A stretch of DNA of 64,000 bases, from NCBI GenBank assembly GCA_016793045.1, contig JAEUKZ010000077.1, positions 1,497-65,496 on the forward strand, written 5' to 3'. Shown here in pieces: positions 47,064 through 62,406 of the stretch (within the stretch, counting starts at the first letter, position 1; every line of letters starts with the position of its first letter). Made by a program: the position numbers and the translations under genes. This DNA is from Alphaproteobacteria bacterium. Lineage in GTDB: Bacteria; Pseudomonadota; Alphaproteobacteria; CACIAM-22H2. The notes beneath the pieces are model-generated. The model searched no databases. It was not told where the DNA came from and saw nothing but the letters and a program-made list of their open reading frames with translations.

Positions 47064-48611
47064 TCACCGGATCGATGTCGCTTCGGTGATCGGCGGGGCC
47101 AGATTGAGCGATCCATCCAGCTGATAACCCAGATCCAGTGCATCGCGCCGGACCCAGACCTGGAGCAGATCATAGAGCGGCACCGAACAGACCTGCGTCA
47201 TGATCCTGCGCTGCGCATCGGCCCACAGGGCCAGCTGGCGTTCGCGGTTCGGCTCCGCGCGCGCGGCATCGATCTCCGCATCCGCCACGTCGCAATGCGC
47301 GAAGTTGAGCGCGGCGGTCGGCGTGCCGATCCGCGAACGCGAGTGGTAGAACTGCGTCAGGTAGCTGTCGGCAATGGGAAAGCGGGCCGCGCCGTAGAAC
47401 GTGAGCGCGCTGAGATCCTGGCGTATCTTCGCATGATAGGTCGAGTGGTCGACGACCTCCATCTCCAGGTTGATGCCGACGCGCCGGAGTTGCGCCTGGA
47501 CCTGCTCCATGATCGGCAGCTGCGCCGAGATGTTGGAGACGACCGCGCGGATCGTGAAGCCGTTCGGATGGCCGGCCTCCGCGAGCAGCGCGCGCGCGCG
47601 CGCGAGGTCGGGCGCATAACGCGGCACTTCGGGAGTCTCGCCGAGATAGCCCTGCGGTACGACCGAGCGTCCTGGAACAACGACGTCGGCGCCGACGAAG
47701 CGGACGATTGCGTTGACGTCGATCGCATGCGCGATCGCACGGCGCACGCGGACGTCGTCGAGCGGGCGCATCCGCGTGTTGATCAGCAGCGTTCGGAACT
47801 CGCCCGGCCGGAAGACGTCGACGACGACGCCGCGCTGGCTGCGCATCCGTTCGACCCAGCGCTGCTCGCGCCGGCCGGCGAACAGGTCGATCTCGCCCGA
47901 CGTGAAGGCAAGTTCGCGCGTCGCATCGGACGTGATGTAGCGCACCTCGATCCGCGGAACGCGCGGCGCCCCCCGAAAATACTCGCGATGCGCCACCAGG
48001 GTCGTGACCGTCTGCGGCCGGTATTCACCGAACGCGAACGGGCCCGTCCCAATCGGGCGACGTCGGAAGTCGTCGCCCATCTCCTCTGCTGCGCGGCGGC
48101 TGATGATCAGTCCGCCATGATAGTCCGACACGAGGCCGAGCAGGCTCGGGACGGTGTTGGCGAGAGTGATCCGCACCGTGTAGGGATCGACCGCATCGAC
48201 CGTGCGAAAATCCGTGAAGTCGCTCGCGAAGGATGATCGCCGCGTATCGGCGGCGCGGCGCAGCGAGAACACCACGTCATCGGCCGTCAGCTCGCCATAC
48301 CCGTGGTGGAACTTCACGCCGCGCCGGAGGTGGAACGTCCAGACCAGACCGTCAGGCGAACTTTCCCACCGCTCGGCGAGGTCGGCTTCGAGCCGCGCGG
48401 GGTCCGCCGATCCGGGCGGGAACCGTACGAGGCCGTTGAACATCCAGCCGAACAGCGCCACATCCTGCGACGCCGACGAACGATGCGGATCGAGATTGCC
48501 GGCATCTCCCGCCGGCACCGCAACGCGCAATGGCCGCTCCTGGGCGCCAGCCGGACCTGACGAGATAAGGAATGCGGTCAGCATGACCGCAACTACGAAA
48601 CGAAGTCGCAT
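47064..48611 (-). CDS. ABC transporter substrate-binding protein, family 5 (peptide/opine/nickel type); paralog of the SBP at 57998
   Basis: 515 aa from MRLRFVVAVMLTAFLISSGPAGAQE. Shares GWMFNGLVRF, LAERWESSPDG, VPSLLGLV and PIGTGPF blocks with the 57998 SBP. Confidence 0.85.
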   Translation of the reverse strand: MRLRFVVAVMLTAFLISSGPAGAQERPLRVAVPAGDAGNLDPHRSSASQDVALFGWMFNGLVRFPPGSADPARLEADLAERWESSPDGLVWTFHLRRGVKFHHGYGELTADDVVFSLRRAADTRRSSFASDFTDFRTVDAVDPYTVRITLANTVPSLLGLVSDYHGGLIISRRAAEEMGDDFRRRPIGTGPFAFGEYRPQTVTTLVAHREYFRGAPRVPRIEVRYITSDATRELAFTSGEIDLFAGRREQRWVERMRSQRGVVVDVFRPGEFRTLLINTRMRPLDDVRVRRAIAHAIDVNAIVRFVGADVVVPGRSVVPQGYLGETPEVPRYAPDLARARALLAEAGHPNGFTIRAVVSNISAQLPIMEQVQAQLRRVGINLEMEVVDHSTYHAKIRQDLSALTFYGAARFPIADSYLTQFYHSRSRIGTPTAALNFAHCDVADAEIDAARAEPNRERQLALWADAQRRIMTQVCSVPLYDLLQVWVRRDALDLGYQLDGSLNLAPPITEATSIR

Positions 48612-48671
48612 GGCACCCCCGCACGGTTTGGCTTTGAATTCTGCGCCAGCGGACTGCATCCTAGCAATCGA

Positions 48672-49838
48672 ATGTCGGAGCCCACATCCGTGAGCGATAC
48701 AAGTCGCGACAAAGTAACCGAAGCGGGCGTCGCCGTGATCGGCGGCGGCATGGTCGGCAGCGCTCTTGCCTATGGCCTCGCGAAGCGCGGGGCGAACGTC
48801 GTACTGCTCGACGAAGGCGACATCGCCTATCGCGCCGCACGCGGAAACTTCGGGCTAGTCTGGACGCAGAGCAAGGGCGACGGCATGCCGGCCTATGCGG
48901 CGTGGAGTCTCGCCAGTGCCGCCGCTTGGCCGGATTTCGCCGAGGCGATGGCAAGCGCTGCGGGCCGCTCGATCGGATACGAACAGCGCGGTGGACTGGT
49001 GTTCTGCGTCGGCGACGCCGAACGCGACCAGCGTGCAGCGCAGCTGCGCCGCCTGCACAATCAGCGCGACGATGCCGCTCCCGTCGCAACGATGCTCGAT
49101 CGCAAGGCTCTGCACGATCTGATGCCGCGCACGCCGCTTGGCCCGCAGGTCGTGGCGGCGTCCTACGCGCCAGGCGACGGTCACGTGAACCCGCTCTACC
49201 TGCTGCGCGGCCTGCATGCCGCCATCCGTCGGCACGGCGGGCGTCACGCGCCCGGCGCCGCTGTGACGCAGATCGTCCCGACCGGCGGCGGGTTCACGCT
49301 GACGCGCGCCGACGGCGCGATGCTGCGCGCCGACAGGATCGTGATCGCCGCCGGCGTCGCGACCACGAGACTTGCCGCGATGGTCGACATCGCCGCACCG
49401 GTGCGCCCGCAGCGCGGCCAGATCATGGTCACCGAGCGCCTTGCGCCGCTCCTGCCGCTGCCGGCCAGTGCGCTGCGTCAGAGCGCAGAAGGCTCCGTGA
49501 TGATAGGCGTATCGGTCGAGGAGGTCGGGCTCGACACCGGCACCACGGTCAAGGAACTCGCCCGCATGGCCGCACGCGCCCTGACCGTGCTGCCGGTGCT
49601 TGCCGAAGCGCGCATGACCCGGGCCTGGGGCGCGCTGCGCCCGATGACTCCCGATGGTTTTCCGGCCTATGCCCAGTCCTCGACATATCCAGGCGCCTTT
49701 GTCGCGACCTGCCATTCCGGCGTCACACTCGCGGCGATCCATGCCGAAGCGCTGGCGCCCGCGATCCTCGCCGGCCGCCTGCCGGACGGTTTCGAACCCT
49801 TTCACCCGAGACGCTTCGATGTTCGCACGGCCGCATAG
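48672..49838 (+). CDS. FAD-dependent oxidoreductase (DadA/HcnC/opine-oxidase subunit B/sarcosine-oxidase beta-like)
   Basis: VAVIGGGMVGSALAYGLAKRGANVVLLDEG dinucleotide fold. 388 aa. Confidence 0.85.
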   Translation: MSEPTSVSDTSRDKVTEAGVAVIGGGMVGSALAYGLAKRGANVVLLDEGDIAYRAARGNFGLVWTQSKGDGMPAYAAWSLASAAAWPDFAEAMASAAGRSIGYEQRGGLVFCVGDAERDQRAAQLRRLHNQRDDAAPVATMLDRKALHDLMPRTPLGPQVVAASYAPGDGHVNPLYLLRGLHAAIRRHGGRHAPGAAVTQIVPTGGGFTLTRADGAMLRADRIVIAAGVATTRLAAMVDIAAPVRPQRGQIMVTERLAPLLPLPASALRQSAEGSVMIGVSVEEVGLDTGTTVKELARMAARALTVLPVLAEARMTRAWGALRPMTPDGFPAYAQSSTYPGAFVATCHSGVTLAAIHAEALAPAILAGRLPDGFEPFHPRRFDVRTAA

Positions 49839-60518: not shown

Positions 60519-61408
60519 AGCCGGCCGAAGCCATCGACGACATCGCCGACGCGCCGCCCGAGCCGCGCAGCGCGCTCGTCCGCGCCTTCGCCGTCTTCAA
60601 TGCCAACAAGACCTCGTGGGTCGGCGTCATCGTGTTCGGCGCGATCGTCGCCATGGCGGCGCTGGCGCCGCTCATCTCGCCCTACGATCCGATCGAGCAG
60701 GACATCATCGCGCGACTCCAGCCGCCCTCCGCCGAGCACTGGTTCGGTACGGACATGTTCGGGCGCGACGTGCTGTCGCGCGTCATCTGGGGCTCGCAGA
60801 TCTCGCTGATCGTGTCGATCGCGTCGATCGCGGTGGCGCTGCTGGTCGGCGGCACGATCGGGCTCGTGTCGGGCTACATCGGCGGGCGCACCGACCTGCT
60901 GATCATGCAGGCGATGGACGTGCTGCTGTCATTCCCATCGCTGATCATGGGCCTGATCGTCGTCGCCATGCTCGGGCCCGACCTGATCAATCTGATCATC
61001 GCCATCGCGCTGACCGCGGTGGCCCCGTTCGCGCGCATCGCCCGCGCGCCGACGATCGTGCTCAAGGAACGCGCCTTCGTCGAGGCGGGCCGCGCGCTCG
61101 GCTTCTCGCACATCCGCATCGTGCTGGTGCACATCCTGCCGAATCTGCTCGCCGAGGTCCTGGTGATGGGCTCGCTGTGGATGGCGACCGCGGTGCGTGT
61201 CGAGGCCAGCCTGAGCTTCATCGGCCTGGGCGTGCGGCCGCCGACGCCGACCTGGGGCGGCATGATCAACGAGGGCTTCGAGAACATCCTCGACGCGCCA
61301 TGGCTGTCGATCTATCCGGGCCTCGCGATCCTGATCCTCGTCTTCGCGCTGAACATGCTTGGCGACGGCCTGCGCGACGCCACCGACCCCAAGCTGCGCG
61401 GCGAGTGA
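60515..61408 (+). CDS. peptide/opine ABC transporter permease (DppC-like)
   Basis: [13 protein letters not shown] overlap. 297 aa. Confidence 0.85.
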
Positions 61409-61410
61409 CC

Positions 61411-62406
61411 ATGGCCAGCGGGAACGCCACCGAGACGGTGCTGAGCGTCAAGGGCCTGAGCAAGACCTTCGTCACCAAGCGCGGCTTTCCCAACCCCGTG
61501 ACGGTGACGGTGCGCGCGGTCGACGACGTGTCGTTCGCGGTCCGCGCAGGCGAGGCCTTCGGCCTGGTCGGCGAGTCGGGCTGCGGCAAGTCGACCACGG
61601 GGCGCGCGCTGCTGCGCCTGATCGAGCCCGATCGCGGAGCCGTCACCTATCGTGGTCAGGACGTGCTGGCGGCAAGCGGCGCGGAGCTGCGCGCGCTGCG
61701 CCGCAAGCTGCAGATCGTGTTCCAGGACCCCTATGCCTCGCTCAATCCGCGTCGCGGCATCGGCGAGACCTTGGCCGAGCCGATGCGCGTGCACAAGATG
61801 GGCGACCGCGCGCAGATCGCAGAGCGGGTCAAGTCGCTGCTCGCCGAGGTCGGCCTGCCGCCGTCCGCCGCCGACAAGTATCCCCACGAGTTCTCCGGCG
61901 GCCAGCGCCAGCGCATCGGCATCGCCCGCGCGCTCTCGGTCGATCCCGAACTCATCGTCGCCGACGAGCCGGTTTCCGCGCTCGACGTCTCGATCCAGGC
62001 GCAGGTGCTGCTGCTGCTGCGAGACCTCCAGGCGCGGCGCGGCCTGAGCTACGTGTTCGTCGCCCACGACCTCGGCGTCGTGCGCTTCTTCTGCCAGAGC
62101 GTCGCGGTGATGTATCTCGGCCGGATCGTCGAGAGCGGCCCGGTCGAGGAGGTCTTCAACCAGCCTGCCCACCCGTATACGACCGTGCTACGCCAGGCAT
62201 CGCCCGTTCCCGATCCGCGTGCGAAGTCGATTGCCGTACGCATCGAGGGCGAGGTGCCGTCAGCCGCGAACCCGCCGCAGGGCTGCCATTTCCATCCGCG
62301 ATGCCCGAACGCGATGCCGGTGTGCAAGACTGTCTATCCGGCCTGGACGCAACTGACGCCGACGCGCGGCGTCGCCTGCCACCTCCACACGCCGGCCGGG
62401 AGTTGA
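61411..62406 (+). CDS. peptide/opine ABC transporter ATP-binding protein (DppF-like)
   Basis: [17 protein letters not shown]. 331 aa. Confidence 0.85.

Follow-up and report, generated by a model that had tools for sequence, protein, structure and literature searches.

Two Anciently Related Gene Sets Predicted to Import and Oxidatively Split Opine-Like N-Substituted Amino Acids in an Uncultured Alphaproteobacterium

Introduction

The question raised by this locus is which compounds are taken up and oxidized by two neighboring sets of binding protein and flavoprotein genes. Both sets are located in a 64-kb stretch of DNA (the window), the host of which is an uncultured soil-type alphaproteobacterium represented only by a metagenome-assembled genome. 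Judging from the sequence, the window appears to carry two old, related gene sets for the import and oxidative splitting of opine-like N-substituted amino acids. The enzyme and transporter families of both modules have been described before, and the find is rated as sound and fairly ordinary.

Results

Gene Content of the Two Modules

The genes, their order and their coordinates (47064–62406) listed in an earlier note on this DNA were all recovered via gene calls and Pfam domains. SBP1, a MoaA-family (family 5, cluster C) periplasmic binding protein, was encoded on the reverse strand at 47064–48611 (Pfam SBP_bac_5, E = 2.9e-79), and the terminator scan placed a terminator-like hairpin after it at 47046–47034. 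Module 1 (48672–52684) was read divergently from SBP1 on the forward strand in the order beta1-gamma-alpha-beta2. The catalytic subunit beta1 (DAO1a, 48672–49838; Pfam DAO) was an FAD protein of the OdhB1/OoxB type with GxGxxG and R-x-W motifs, and it was followed by gamma 1 (49819–50130; Fer2_4), a small [2Fe-2S] protein of the OdhC type with a C-x4-C-x2-C-x12-C motif. Alpha 1 (50127–51560; Pyr_redox_2, SO_alpha_A3 and Fer2_BFD) was of the OdhA/OoxA type and contained GxGxxG and Cys388-x-Cys390-x32-Cys423-x4-Cys428. The second catalytic subunit, beta2 (DAO1b, 51557–52684; DAO, R-x-W motif), was of the OdhB2 type. The absence of a permease or ATPase belonging to module 1 was borne out, SBP1 being an orphan with neither adjacent, and the sharing of the module-2 permeases by SBP1 is plausible.

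Module 2 was encoded on the forward strand. An XRE-HTH and cupin regulator (52769–53410; HTH_3/HTH_31 and Cupin_2) was PuuR-like, with a weak match to the PuuR model that was below cutoff; the 84-base gap upstream of it held the near-palindrome TGAAAATTTCA, and its stop overlapped the start of dppD. The DppD-like ABC ATPase (53407–54417; ABC_tran and oligo_HPY) was located upstream of the enzyme genes, and this position ahead of the beta gene was also kept in Paracraurococcus, Dankookia and the comparison locus L088. The SDR (54426–55133; adh_short) was 57% identical to that of the moa/hydantoinase-like locus of Terrarubrum and only 29–31% identical to Ti-plasmid SDRs. The enzyme genes were gamma 2 (55130–55429; Fer2_4), a small [2Fe-2S] protein with the motif C-x4-C-x2-C-x12-C, alpha 2 (55426–56802; Pyr_redox_2, Fer2_BFD and SO_alpha_A3), with C375-x-C377-x33-C411-x4-C416, and the beta subunit DAO2 (56799–57959; DAO), which was of the Burkholderia gamma-alpha-beta type. 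Over the longest aligned stretch, alpha 2 was 46–51% identical to the alphas from the gamma-alpha-beta trios of S. fredii and Burkholderia, and the beta tree grouped DAO2 with the proteins of Burkholderia, S. fredii and L088 at a bootstrap of 100.

The second MoaA-family binding protein, SBP2 (57998–59551; SBP_bac_5), had a twin-arginine-like signal peptide (SRRAF) and was 67% identical to Paracraurococcus orthologues sharing its gene context. It was followed by DppB-like (59577–60518) and DppC-like (60515–61408) permeases, both with BPD_transp_1, and by a DppF-like ABC ATPase (61405/61411–62406; ABC_tran and oligo_HPY), at the position of which a 333-aa gene was called in L086, a contig 99–100% identical to the window. 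The earlier note had ended module 2 at 62406, which was not so. The translation revealed a hydantoinase/oxoprolinase A of the ATP-dependent lactamase family at 62433–64000, cut by the window end, and L086 had Hydant_A_N/Hydantoinase_A followed by Hydantoinase_B. The best NCBIfam match of hydantoinase A was caprolactamase alpha/beta, below cutoff. Module 2 is thus described as one long operon of regulator, DppD, SDR, gamma-alpha-beta, SBP2, DppB, DppC, DppF, hydantoinase A and hydantoinase B. In both modules, most adjacent genes overlapped by 4 bases; the overlap of DAO1a with the first 2Fe-2S gene was 20 bases, and the other junctions were gaps of 8–38 bases, except for the gap ahead of the regulator. 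A third Dpp-type system was located within the window at 22585–27990.

Relationship Between the Two Modules

In the pairwise alignment, SBP1 and SBP2 were 56.7% identical along their full length (506 aa), and the blocks GWMFNGLVRF, LAERW.SSPDG, VPSLLGLV and PIGTGPF occurred in both translations. The identity was 36.8% for DAO1b and DAO2, 32.8% for the two alphas and 36% for the two gammas, and DAO1a was 26–28% identical to the other two betas. The SBPs and the enzyme subunits were each closer to orthologues from other genera than to the partner in the window; hence, duplication and divergence did not happen within this locus. On these comparisons, the SBPs and enzyme subunits are considered old paralogs, and the modules are separate and anciently related.

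Both enzyme sets occurred in the same tandem order on a related metagenome contig. An SBP1-type protein lay beside a beta1-(gamma)-alpha-beta2 set in Terrarubrum plasmid 1, L088 and L090, and SBP1 clustered in the tree with the SBPs adjoining such modules in L088 and L090 (bootstrap 100). With a bootstrap of 100, DAO1b grouped with the beta2 proteins of Azospirillum, Terrarubrum, L088 and L090. The counterparts of each window module in Terrarubrum flagellatum were 50–70% identical and were carried by different replicons, whereas the two modules share one stretch in the window. NZ_CP091852.1 carried an SBP, a LysR gene, beta1-gamma-alpha-beta2 and two permeases. NZ_CP091854.1 (plasmid 3) carried a DAO, an SDR, an SBP, permeases, an ATPase, an SBP and hydantoinase A/B. 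This plasmid has a single AgaE-like DAO, together with SIS-domain and PfkB-kinase genes (an Amadori-type route), where the window has a three-subunit enzyme. In Paracraurococcus, the context was DppD-beta-SBP-DppBCF-HyuA and the beta subunit had no alpha or gamma nearby, which raises the question of whether beta always needs alpha and gamma.

Comparison With Flavin-Containing Opine Dehydrogenases

The architecture of module 1 has already been published. Opine dehydrogenase was described as having three subunits, with bll7193–bll7190 of Bradyrhizobium japonicum USDA110 encoding OdhB1-C-A-B2 and PP_4457/4456 as the Pseudomonas putida counterpart (Watanabe et al., 2015; PMC4575208). This four-gene order, with overlapping genes, was identical in module 1, the likeness being one of order and motifs. 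Moreover, beta1 and beta2 of module 1 came from two beta lineages that are unrelated to each other, a pattern also described for BjOdhB1 and BjOdhB2, both of which draw on shared alpha and gamma subunits (PMC4575208). Unlike these Odh systems, the window also carries an orphan SBP of the MoaA type and, in tandem, a second gamma-alpha-beta set. The family-defined cofactor motifs were all found in both modules, namely GxGxxG (alpha, beta), R-x-W (beta), C-x4-C-x2-C-x12-C (gamma) and C-x-C-x32/33-C-x4-C (alpha). No subunit or SBP of either module reached the cutoff of an NCBIfam model. The Km of the B. japonicum enzymes for octopine was very high (19.5 mM; PMC4575208), and therefore the real substrates of the family are poorly known.

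Comparison With the Octopine-Type Ti Plasmid

Module 1 shared the beta-gamma-alpha order with the octopine Ti plasmid (NC_002377.1). DAO1a was 39.6% identical to OoxB (tblastn) and was placed in the OoxB clade of the beta tree (bootstrap 100), gamma 1 shared 43% identity with the 2Fe-2S protein encoded between ooxB and ooxA, and alpha 1 was 43.5% identical to OoxA. The Oox trio of the Ti plasmid, however, has the genes for octopine transport (OccQMPT) and ornithine cyclodeaminase as neighbors and lacks a beta2 gene. Module 2 was far more distant from Oox, with 32% identity for alpha; for DAO2, tblastn returned no reportable match to OoxB, and the identity of the two in the tree alignment was 23%.

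The transporter and hydantoinase genes pointed to another part of the same plasmid. The binding proteins matched PDB 6tfq_A with E values of 1.4e-147 (SBP1) and 2.7e-164 (SBP2). The sequence of this chain agrees at 100% identity with the binding protein that ends a permease-permease-ATPase-SBP operon beside trbI in the octopine Ti plasmid; it was named MoaA (PMC7312458), with the structures 6TFQ/6TFS/6TFX. SBP2 was 49.5% and SBP1 45.8% identical to it. The moa permeases were 61% (DppB) and 48% (DppC) identical to those of the window, and the halves of the fused moa ATPase were 53% (DppD, N-terminal half) and 44% identical to the window ATPases. MoaA is presumably the mannopinic-acid binding protein of this plasmid; the names and functions of moaBCDA and agaEFG are those reportedly given to them by Lyi et al. 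(1999) and Vigouroux et al. (2020). Furthermore, hydantoinase A was 50% identical to the hydantoinase adjoining the moa genes, where A and B also stand as a pair. In contrast to the window, the moa region has no three-subunit dehydrogenase but a single 437-aa FAD oxidoreductase, which was 29–32% identical to the window betas and fell in a separate clade; the region further has a fused ATPase and a DeoR-type regulator, and its operon lacks an SDR.

Discussion

The two modules are probably catabolic and serve opine-like secondary amines, that is, N-substituted amino acids that would be taken up and cleaved by a dehydrogenase. Opine-like secondary-amine oxidation with dedicated importers, as the earlier note proposed, agrees with the module-1 gene order, the OoxB, gamma and OoxA identities, the cofactor motifs and the homology to MoaA. 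Gene content, homologies, cofactor motifs and synteny are the observations from which activities, electron route and substrate are deduced. Conjugates of an amino acid with a sugar or polyol may tentatively be named as the substrate class that best fits the homology to MoaA and hydantoinase. The 46–49% identity to MoaA does not fix the ligand specificity of SBP1 or SBP2.

The compound would be captured in the periplasm by the binding proteins and imported through the DppBCDF translocator. If it were a lactam (agropinic acid, for example, being the lactam of mannopinic acid), the ATP-dependent hydantoinase-type enzyme could open the ring. The C-N bond would then be oxidized to an imine by beta, and imine hydrolysis would yield an amino acid and a carbonyl compound. 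By analogy to OdhAB1C and OdhAB2C, each FAD beta of module 1 may pair with one common alpha and one common gamma; alpha would carry FAD, FMN and a BFD-type [2Fe-2S] cluster and gamma a [2Fe-2S] cluster, as in B. japonicum Odh. Electrons would travel via FMN and the Fe-S clusters and enter the respiratory chain; the enzyme would be a dehydrogenase rather than an oxidase. The SDR might handle the polyol, sugar or keto part.

The substrates could instead be classical opines of the octopine/nopaline family (N-carboxyethyl or N-dicarboxypropyl amino acids), captured by MoaA-like SBPs of shifted specificity. Octopine and nopaline are the compounds on which the sole characterized enzyme relatives act, and DAO1a lay in the OoxB clade. 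In other genomes, the same enzyme trios combine with many transporter families, the PotD type among them; therefore, the enzyme family is not tied to one substrate class. However, the Ti-plasmid octopine transporter occQMPT, which we take to be of the polar amino-acid type and hence of another ABC family, carries the annotation of a different system; moa and the neighboring hydantoinase genes are matched by the SBPs, the permeases and the hydantoinase pair alike; and the Km of the B. japonicum enzyme for octopine is too high to be physiological. Classical opines are thus an unlikely substrate.

Much less credence is given to one or both trios being D-hydroxyproline, L-proline or sarcosine-type dehydrogenases for small cyclic or N-methyl amino acids from imported peptides. 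The best PDB match of DAO2 was 1y56_B (E = 5.8e-37), presumably the beta subunit of an archaeal L-proline dehydrogenase, family-5 SBPs often carry peptides, and soxA/soxB subfamily models were the top or second-best NCBIfam matches. These matches were all far below cutoff, the alphas (458–477 aa) scoring 75–118 bits where the cutoff for soxA is 1164, and sarcosine oxidase identity is unlikely. According to the Pfam domains, genes for SoxD/SoxG, a hydroxyproline epimerase and a peptidase were all absent from the locus. The SBPs matched MoaA at E values of 1e-147 to 1e-164 and DppA/OppA at 1e-30 or weaker, and L-proline was not used by B. japonicum OdhAB2C (PMC4575208). A cyanide-forming glycine dehydrogenase in module 2 is barely credible, even though its gamma-alpha-beta order and subunit sizes equal those of HcnA-HcnB-HcnC and the enzyme family is related to HCN synthase. 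The trio, with 4-base overlaps, lies inside an ABC importer operon alongside the SDR and lactamase, in keeping with the earlier doubt about cyanogenesis. Its orthologues elsewhere were always within importer operons, and Hcn-named relatives made up 0 of the 243 plasmid/chromid matches.

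Gene Content of the Two Modules

The locus is a fresh member of known families, namely, the OdhABC-type opine dehydrogenases, the MoaA-type opine importers and the aga-like lactamases. To our knowledge, such an arrangement has not been previously described. The G+C content of the window was approximately 66-72%; hence, spurious long ORFs were common, and the real genes were chosen according to their domain content and start-site context. SBP1, the family-5 binding protein of module 1, was encoded at 47064-48611 on the minus strand. Divergent from it, on the plus strand, were the beta subunit DAO1a (DAO family, 48672-49838), gamma 1 (103 aa, Fer2_4, 49819-50130), alpha 1 (477 aa, with Pyr_redox_2, SO_alpha_A3 and Fer2_BFD, 50127-51560) and the second beta subunit DAO1b (51557-52684). 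Module 2, also on the plus strand, comprised an XRE-cupin regulator (52769-53410), DppD (53407-54417), an SDR (54426-55133), gamma 2 (Fer2_4, 55130-55429), alpha 2 (458 aa, 55426-56802), the beta subunit DAO2 (56799-57959), the second binding protein SBP2 (57998-59551), DppB (59577-60518), DppC (60515-61408) and DppF (ending at 62406). These assignments were made with Pfam, and every gene listed in the earlier note was recovered at the same coordinates. The end of the cluster at 62406 had to be revised, since the operon continues: translation revealed a hydantoinase A gene on the plus strand that starts at 62433 and runs past the window end, and in a 99-100% identical contig (L086) hydantoinase A (680 aa) is followed by hydantoinase B (580 aa). 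The NCBI proteins MBL8835670-82, from a metagenome-assembled 'Alphaproteobacteria bacterium', matched the window, and their consecutive accession numbers were consistent with the gene model. Two ORFs at 52736-53335 and 62334-63794, both on the minus strand, were rejected as genes: rich in Arg and Ala, they only shadowed the reading frames of real genes on the plus strand.

Tight coupling of the genes extended along a single strand from position 48672 past 64000. Neighboring enzyme genes overlapped by 4 bases, or by 20 bases for DAO1a and gamma 1, and the sole break was an 84-base gap before the regulator. A near-palindrome, TGAAAATTTCA, was located in this gap at 52713-52723, just 5' of the XRE-cupin regulator gene. 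Its surroundings were G+C-rich, and the gap was the only sizeable intergenic one; the element may be an operator or a promoter element. A promoter scan found nothing.

Family Membership of the Dehydrogenase Subunits

According to Watanabe et al. (2015; PMC4575208), the product of the Nox/Oox-like genes is a flavin-containing opine dehydrogenase of three subunits, in which beta is the catalytic subunit of the DAO family, alpha carries FAD, FMN and a [2Fe-2S] cluster, and gamma carries a [2Fe-2S] cluster. The genes of B. japonicum USDA110 are ordered OdhB1-C-A-B2 (bll7193-7190); the two betas there belong to unrelated phylogenetic lineages, and either one forms a complex with the alpha and gamma that they share (PMC4575208). 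The order of module 1 was exactly equal to this one, and in both modules the genes for beta, the small 2Fe-2S gamma and the alpha with Pyr_redox_2 and BFD domains lay in tandem and overlapped. The family motifs were defined as C-x4-C-x2-C-x11-12-C for gamma, C-x-C-x31-33-C-x4-C for alpha, GxGxxG for ADP binding, and R-x-W (FMN) in beta. Further hallmarks of the family are dehydrogenase activity toward an opine in the presence of artificial acceptors and an alpha4-beta4-gamma4 assembly. Every beta and alpha of the two modules had the N-terminal GxGxxG, and R-x-W was present in each of the betas. Both gammas carried the [2Fe-2S] motif with a spacing of x12 (C-x4-C-x2-C-x12-C), and the alpha motif had spacings of x32 in module 1 and x33 in module 2. 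Compared with the octopine Ti plasmid, DAO1a shared 39.6% identity with OoxB (tblastn) and alpha 1 shared 43.5% with OoxA; the counterpart of gamma 1, at 43% identity, was the 2Fe-2S protein whose gene lies between ooxB and ooxA. The reported identity between PpOdhB and AtOoxB is at the same level (PMC4575208).

A neighbor-joining tree of 17 beta subunits, a set from which the characterized BjOdhB2 and BtOdhB were absent, resolved three clades with a bootstrap of 100 each. The earlier note had proposed a phylogeny as a check on its reading; in the OoxB part of this comparison, DAO1a fell within the OoxB clade (bootstrap 100). It was the only beta to group with the characterized OoxB (type-1 subfamily). 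DAO1b belonged to a 'beta2' clade (bootstrap 100), and DAO2 to a clade with the gamma-alpha-beta trios of Burkholderia stagnalis and Sinorhizobium fredii (bootstrap 100). The FAD oxidoreductase encoded in the aga region of the Ti plasmid, a single-subunit enzyme, formed a separate branch. The best solved relative of DAO2 was 1y56_B, which we take to be the beta subunit of the archaeal L-proline dehydrogenase. This match agrees with the literature, where the archaeal L-ProDH is named as the closest neighbor of the type-2 betas (PMC4575208). The PDB contained no close structure for the alpha subunits, and no enzyme subunit or SBP matched an NCBIfam model above its cutoff. The alpha family was large: of 8,000 scored candidates, at least 7,886 proteins reached E <= 1e-40.

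Binding Proteins and Transporter

The top PDB match of both binding proteins was 6tfq_A (also 6tfs and 6tfx), with E values of 2.7e-164 for SBP2 and 1.4e-147 for SBP1; the next matches were at approximately 1e-43. The homology was full-length in both proteins, from residue 28 to the end. In a table of PMC7312458, 6TFX appears as MoaA of Rhizobium radiobacter. The 6tfq_A sequence was 100% identical to the SBP closing a permease-permease-ATPase-SBP operon that adjoins trbI on the octopine-type Ti plasmid NC_002377.1. We take this operon to be the moaBCDA mannopinic-acid transporter, the neighboring FAD oxidoreductase to be agaE, and the hydantoinase A/B genes to be agaFG; agaE would presumably serve in mannopinic-acid cleavage and agaFG in agropinic-acid lactam opening. 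SBP2 was 49.5% and SBP1 45.8% identical to the Ti-plasmid MoaA, DppB and DppC were 61% and 48% identical to the moa permeases, DppD and DppF were 53% and 44% identical to the halves of the fused ATPase, and hydantoinase A was 50% identical to its Ti-plasmid counterpart. The window SDR was only 29-31% identical to the two Ti-plasmid SDRs, and family and structure searches returned only generic relatives for it. The best curated match of the hydantoinase pair was caprolactamase alpha/beta, below cutoff, which indicated the ATP-dependent lactamase family. The SBP family comprised 2,457 proteins at E <= 1e-60.

The NCBI pipeline name of both SBPs was 'polyamine ABC transporter substrate-binding protein'. 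No curated NCBIfam support was found for this 'polyamine' name, which looks misleading because, among proteins of solved structure, the nearest is MoaA, an opine binder. The N-terminus of SBP2 (57998-58075), MRISRRAFTAGAAAILASTGASA, was a twin-arginine-like signal, and that of SBP1, MRLRFVVAVMLTAFLISSGPAGA, was an ordinary Sec-type signal. A terminator-like G+C hairpin with a T-run was observed at 47034-47046 (minus strand), 18 bases past the SBP1 stop codon, which fits SBP1 as a single-gene transcription unit.

SBP2 had moaBCD-like permeases and an ATPase of its own beside it; SBP1 was without an adjacent translocator. The module 2 translocator is the obvious candidate partner for this orphan, because the two SBPs are 57% identical and because the permeases of SBP1-type modules found elsewhere share 60-62% identity with those of module 2. 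A third complete Dpp/Opp-type ABC system (SBP, DppB, DppC, DppD and DppF) was present at 22585-27990 on the minus strand. Its components were 40-51% identical to those of module 2, and its SBP was only 30% identical to SBP1 and SBP2; it is a less likely alternative translocator for SBP1.

Origin of the Two Modules

The earlier note had read shared sequence blocks as a sign of duplication followed by divergence. All four quoted identical blocks were present in both SBPs, and the pairwise alignment proposed there (BLASTP) gave 56.7% identity over 506 residues. Hence, the paralogy of the SBPs was upheld, but a duplication in this genome was not, since closer orthologues occur elsewhere. The between-module identities were 36.8% for DAO1b and DAO2, 32.8% for the alphas and 36% for the gammas, and DAO1a was 26-28% identical to the other two betas (pairwise BLASTP). 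A recent in-situ duplication of the whole module was rejected, because identity was 57% between the SBPs but only 33-37% between the enzymes, and each component had closer orthologues elsewhere. In an SBP tree rooted on AgaA, SBP1 grouped at a bootstrap of 100 with SBPs encoded next to beta1-(gamma)-alpha-beta2 modules, namely those of L088, L090 and metagenomic relatives. SBP2 formed a group with Paracraurococcus proteins at a bootstrap of 100 and a looser one, at 74, with MoaA and the SBP of Terrarubrum plasmid 3. SBP1 had many homologues at 60-86% identity, closer than SBP2 (57%). Judged from these sequences, the two modules are old paralogous lineages brought together rather than a tandem duplication in this genome, because closer SBP1 homologues occur elsewhere and the enzymes share only 33-37% identity between modules.

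For SBP2, the nearest genomes were those of Acetobacteraceae-type organisms, namely, Paracraurococcus lichenis and P. ruber (67%) and Dankookia sp. (56%). The Paracraurococcus order was DppD-beta-SBP-DppB-DppC-DppF-hydantoinase A, with a DAO2 orthologue (59-61%) between DppD and SBP at ~8900-9970 in both loci (L004 and L005). No alpha, gamma or SDR gene was found near this beta in the 21-kb locus; it acts either alone or with subunits encoded elsewhere. The Dankookia order was DppD-beta-SBP-DppBCF-gamma-alpha. In Terrarubrum flagellatum, the two modules were on separate plasmids. The module 1 counterpart comprised an SBP (58% to SBP1), a LysR gene, beta1-gamma-alpha-beta2 (51-56%) and two permeases (60-62%), and plasmid 3 carried a DAO, an SDR (57%), an SBP (54% to SBP2), permeases (65-70%), a fused ATPase, a second SBP and hydantoinase A/B. 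Metagenome contig L088 contained an SBP1 orthologue (78% identical) and a tandem of beta1-gamma-alpha-beta2, DppD and gamma-alpha-beta, which is the window order, at 62-74% identity. Thus, the juxtaposition of both enzyme sets is conserved and not accidental. In contig L090, an SBP1-type protein was divergent from beta1-alpha-beta2. The beta1 and alpha genes overlapped directly at 7421-9917 (minus strand), with no gamma called between them; the gamma subunit seems missing or missed in a module that is otherwise orthologous. On plasmid p3 of Azospirillum brasilense Sp7, a beta1-gamma-alpha-beta2 set followed a PotD-type transporter and was itself followed by RidA genes, and the gamma-alpha-beta trios of S. 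fredii and B. stagnalis lay within other transporter families. A megablast comparison of the region with plasmids gave only patchy matches of 71-76%.

Proposed Function and Substrate

The finding of the earlier note was real, and its interpretation as oxidation of secondary-amine or opine-like compounds was essentially right, given the OdhABC motifs, the Oox homology and the MoaA-family SBPs. In the proposed mechanism, the compound would be captured in the periplasm by the binding proteins and imported by the ABC transporter, with optional ATP-dependent opening of a lactam. Beta would then dehydrogenate the C-N bond, and the electrons would pass via FMN and Fe-S to the respiratory chain; the characterized enzymes of the family are dehydrogenases, not oxidases (PMC4575208). 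The imine would be hydrolyzed to an amino acid and a carbonyl compound, and the SDR may act on the non-amino-acid part.

Two other assignments of the enzymes were weighed against opine-like oxidation. Cyanide synthesis by an HcnABC-type enzyme is very unlikely because of the genomic context. Pseudomonas hcnABC is a stand-alone three-gene operon outside any substrate importer operon; the window trio was instead translationally coupled to the upstream SDR, and the SBP and permease genes followed after 38 bases. Moreover, no Hcn name occurred among 243 plasmid/chromid matches. A hydroxyproline, proline or sarcosine function is unlikely in view of subunit size, missing partner genes and context. 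The alpha subunit of heterotetrameric sarcosine oxidase (SoxBDAG) has ~1000 aa with a C-terminal folate-binding domain, whereas the window alphas had 477 and 458 aa and lacked the long C-terminal half. They scored 118 and 75 bits with the soxA model TIGR01372, against a cutoff of 1164, and Pfam detected no SoxD or SoxG genes in the locus.

For the opine-like substrates themselves, the MoaA, moa-permease and hydantoinase homologies, together with the SIS/PfkB genes in the Terrarubrum counterpart, suggest sugar- or polyol-amino acid conjugates. The evidence is weak, because these enzymes occur alongside many kinds of transporter; classical octopine- or nopaline-type substrates are a possible alternative. 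On Terrarubrum plasmid 3 (L085, 5695-8025), SIS-domain, PfkB-kinase and RidA genes were located upstream of the moa/hydantoinase-like locus. They resembled the fructoselysine kinase/deglycase route and the fructoselysine-6-kinase and SIS pair of the Ti plasmid (L087, 37086-38936), and these genes give a hint that the transporter family with moa/hydantoinase-like loci handles Amadori-type compounds. A more inclusive proposal is a subunit-exchange system in which the betas swap between scaffolds and two MoaA-family SBPs, one of which is an orphan, feed one DppBCDF; decaying plant material would supply the range of sugar- or polyol-amino acid conjugates, along with the corresponding lactams, that this one locus handles independently of Agrobacterium. 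Taken jointly, these parts are improbable. The tandem of two alpha/gamma scaffolds with three unrelated betas was also kept in the related metagenome contig.

The locus provides a clear chromosomal case of opine-type catabolic machinery outside Agrobacterium, in an uncultured alphaproteobacterium, in which MoaA-type SBPs and a lactamase pair are linked to a three-subunit flavin dehydrogenase that replaces the single AgaE-type oxidoreductase. The current understanding of the enzyme family is unchanged. Two expressible, screenable SBPs in one locus offer a practical route to the natural substrates of a very large enzyme family.

Other Features of the Window

A conserved pair of genes was observed directly upstream of SBP1 at 40963-46911 (minus strand), encoding an 853-aa circularly permuted ATP-grasp and Alpha-E protein and a 1117-aa protein with Bact_transglu_N, transglutaminase-core and DUF2126 domains. 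A protocatechuate/beta-ketoadipate pathway block was located at 34421-40047 (minus strand). Its genes encode two subunits of CoA-transferase, a hydrolase of the alpha/beta type that resembles enol-lactonases, the beta subunit of protocatechuate 3,4-dioxygenase and a Lyase_1 protein resembling cycloisomerases. At 28162-32419 (plus strand), a 530-aa DAO and BFD-domain protein (glycerol-3-phosphate dehydrogenase-like) was encoded with an FGGY carbohydrate kinase; this flavoprotein was unrelated to the two modules.
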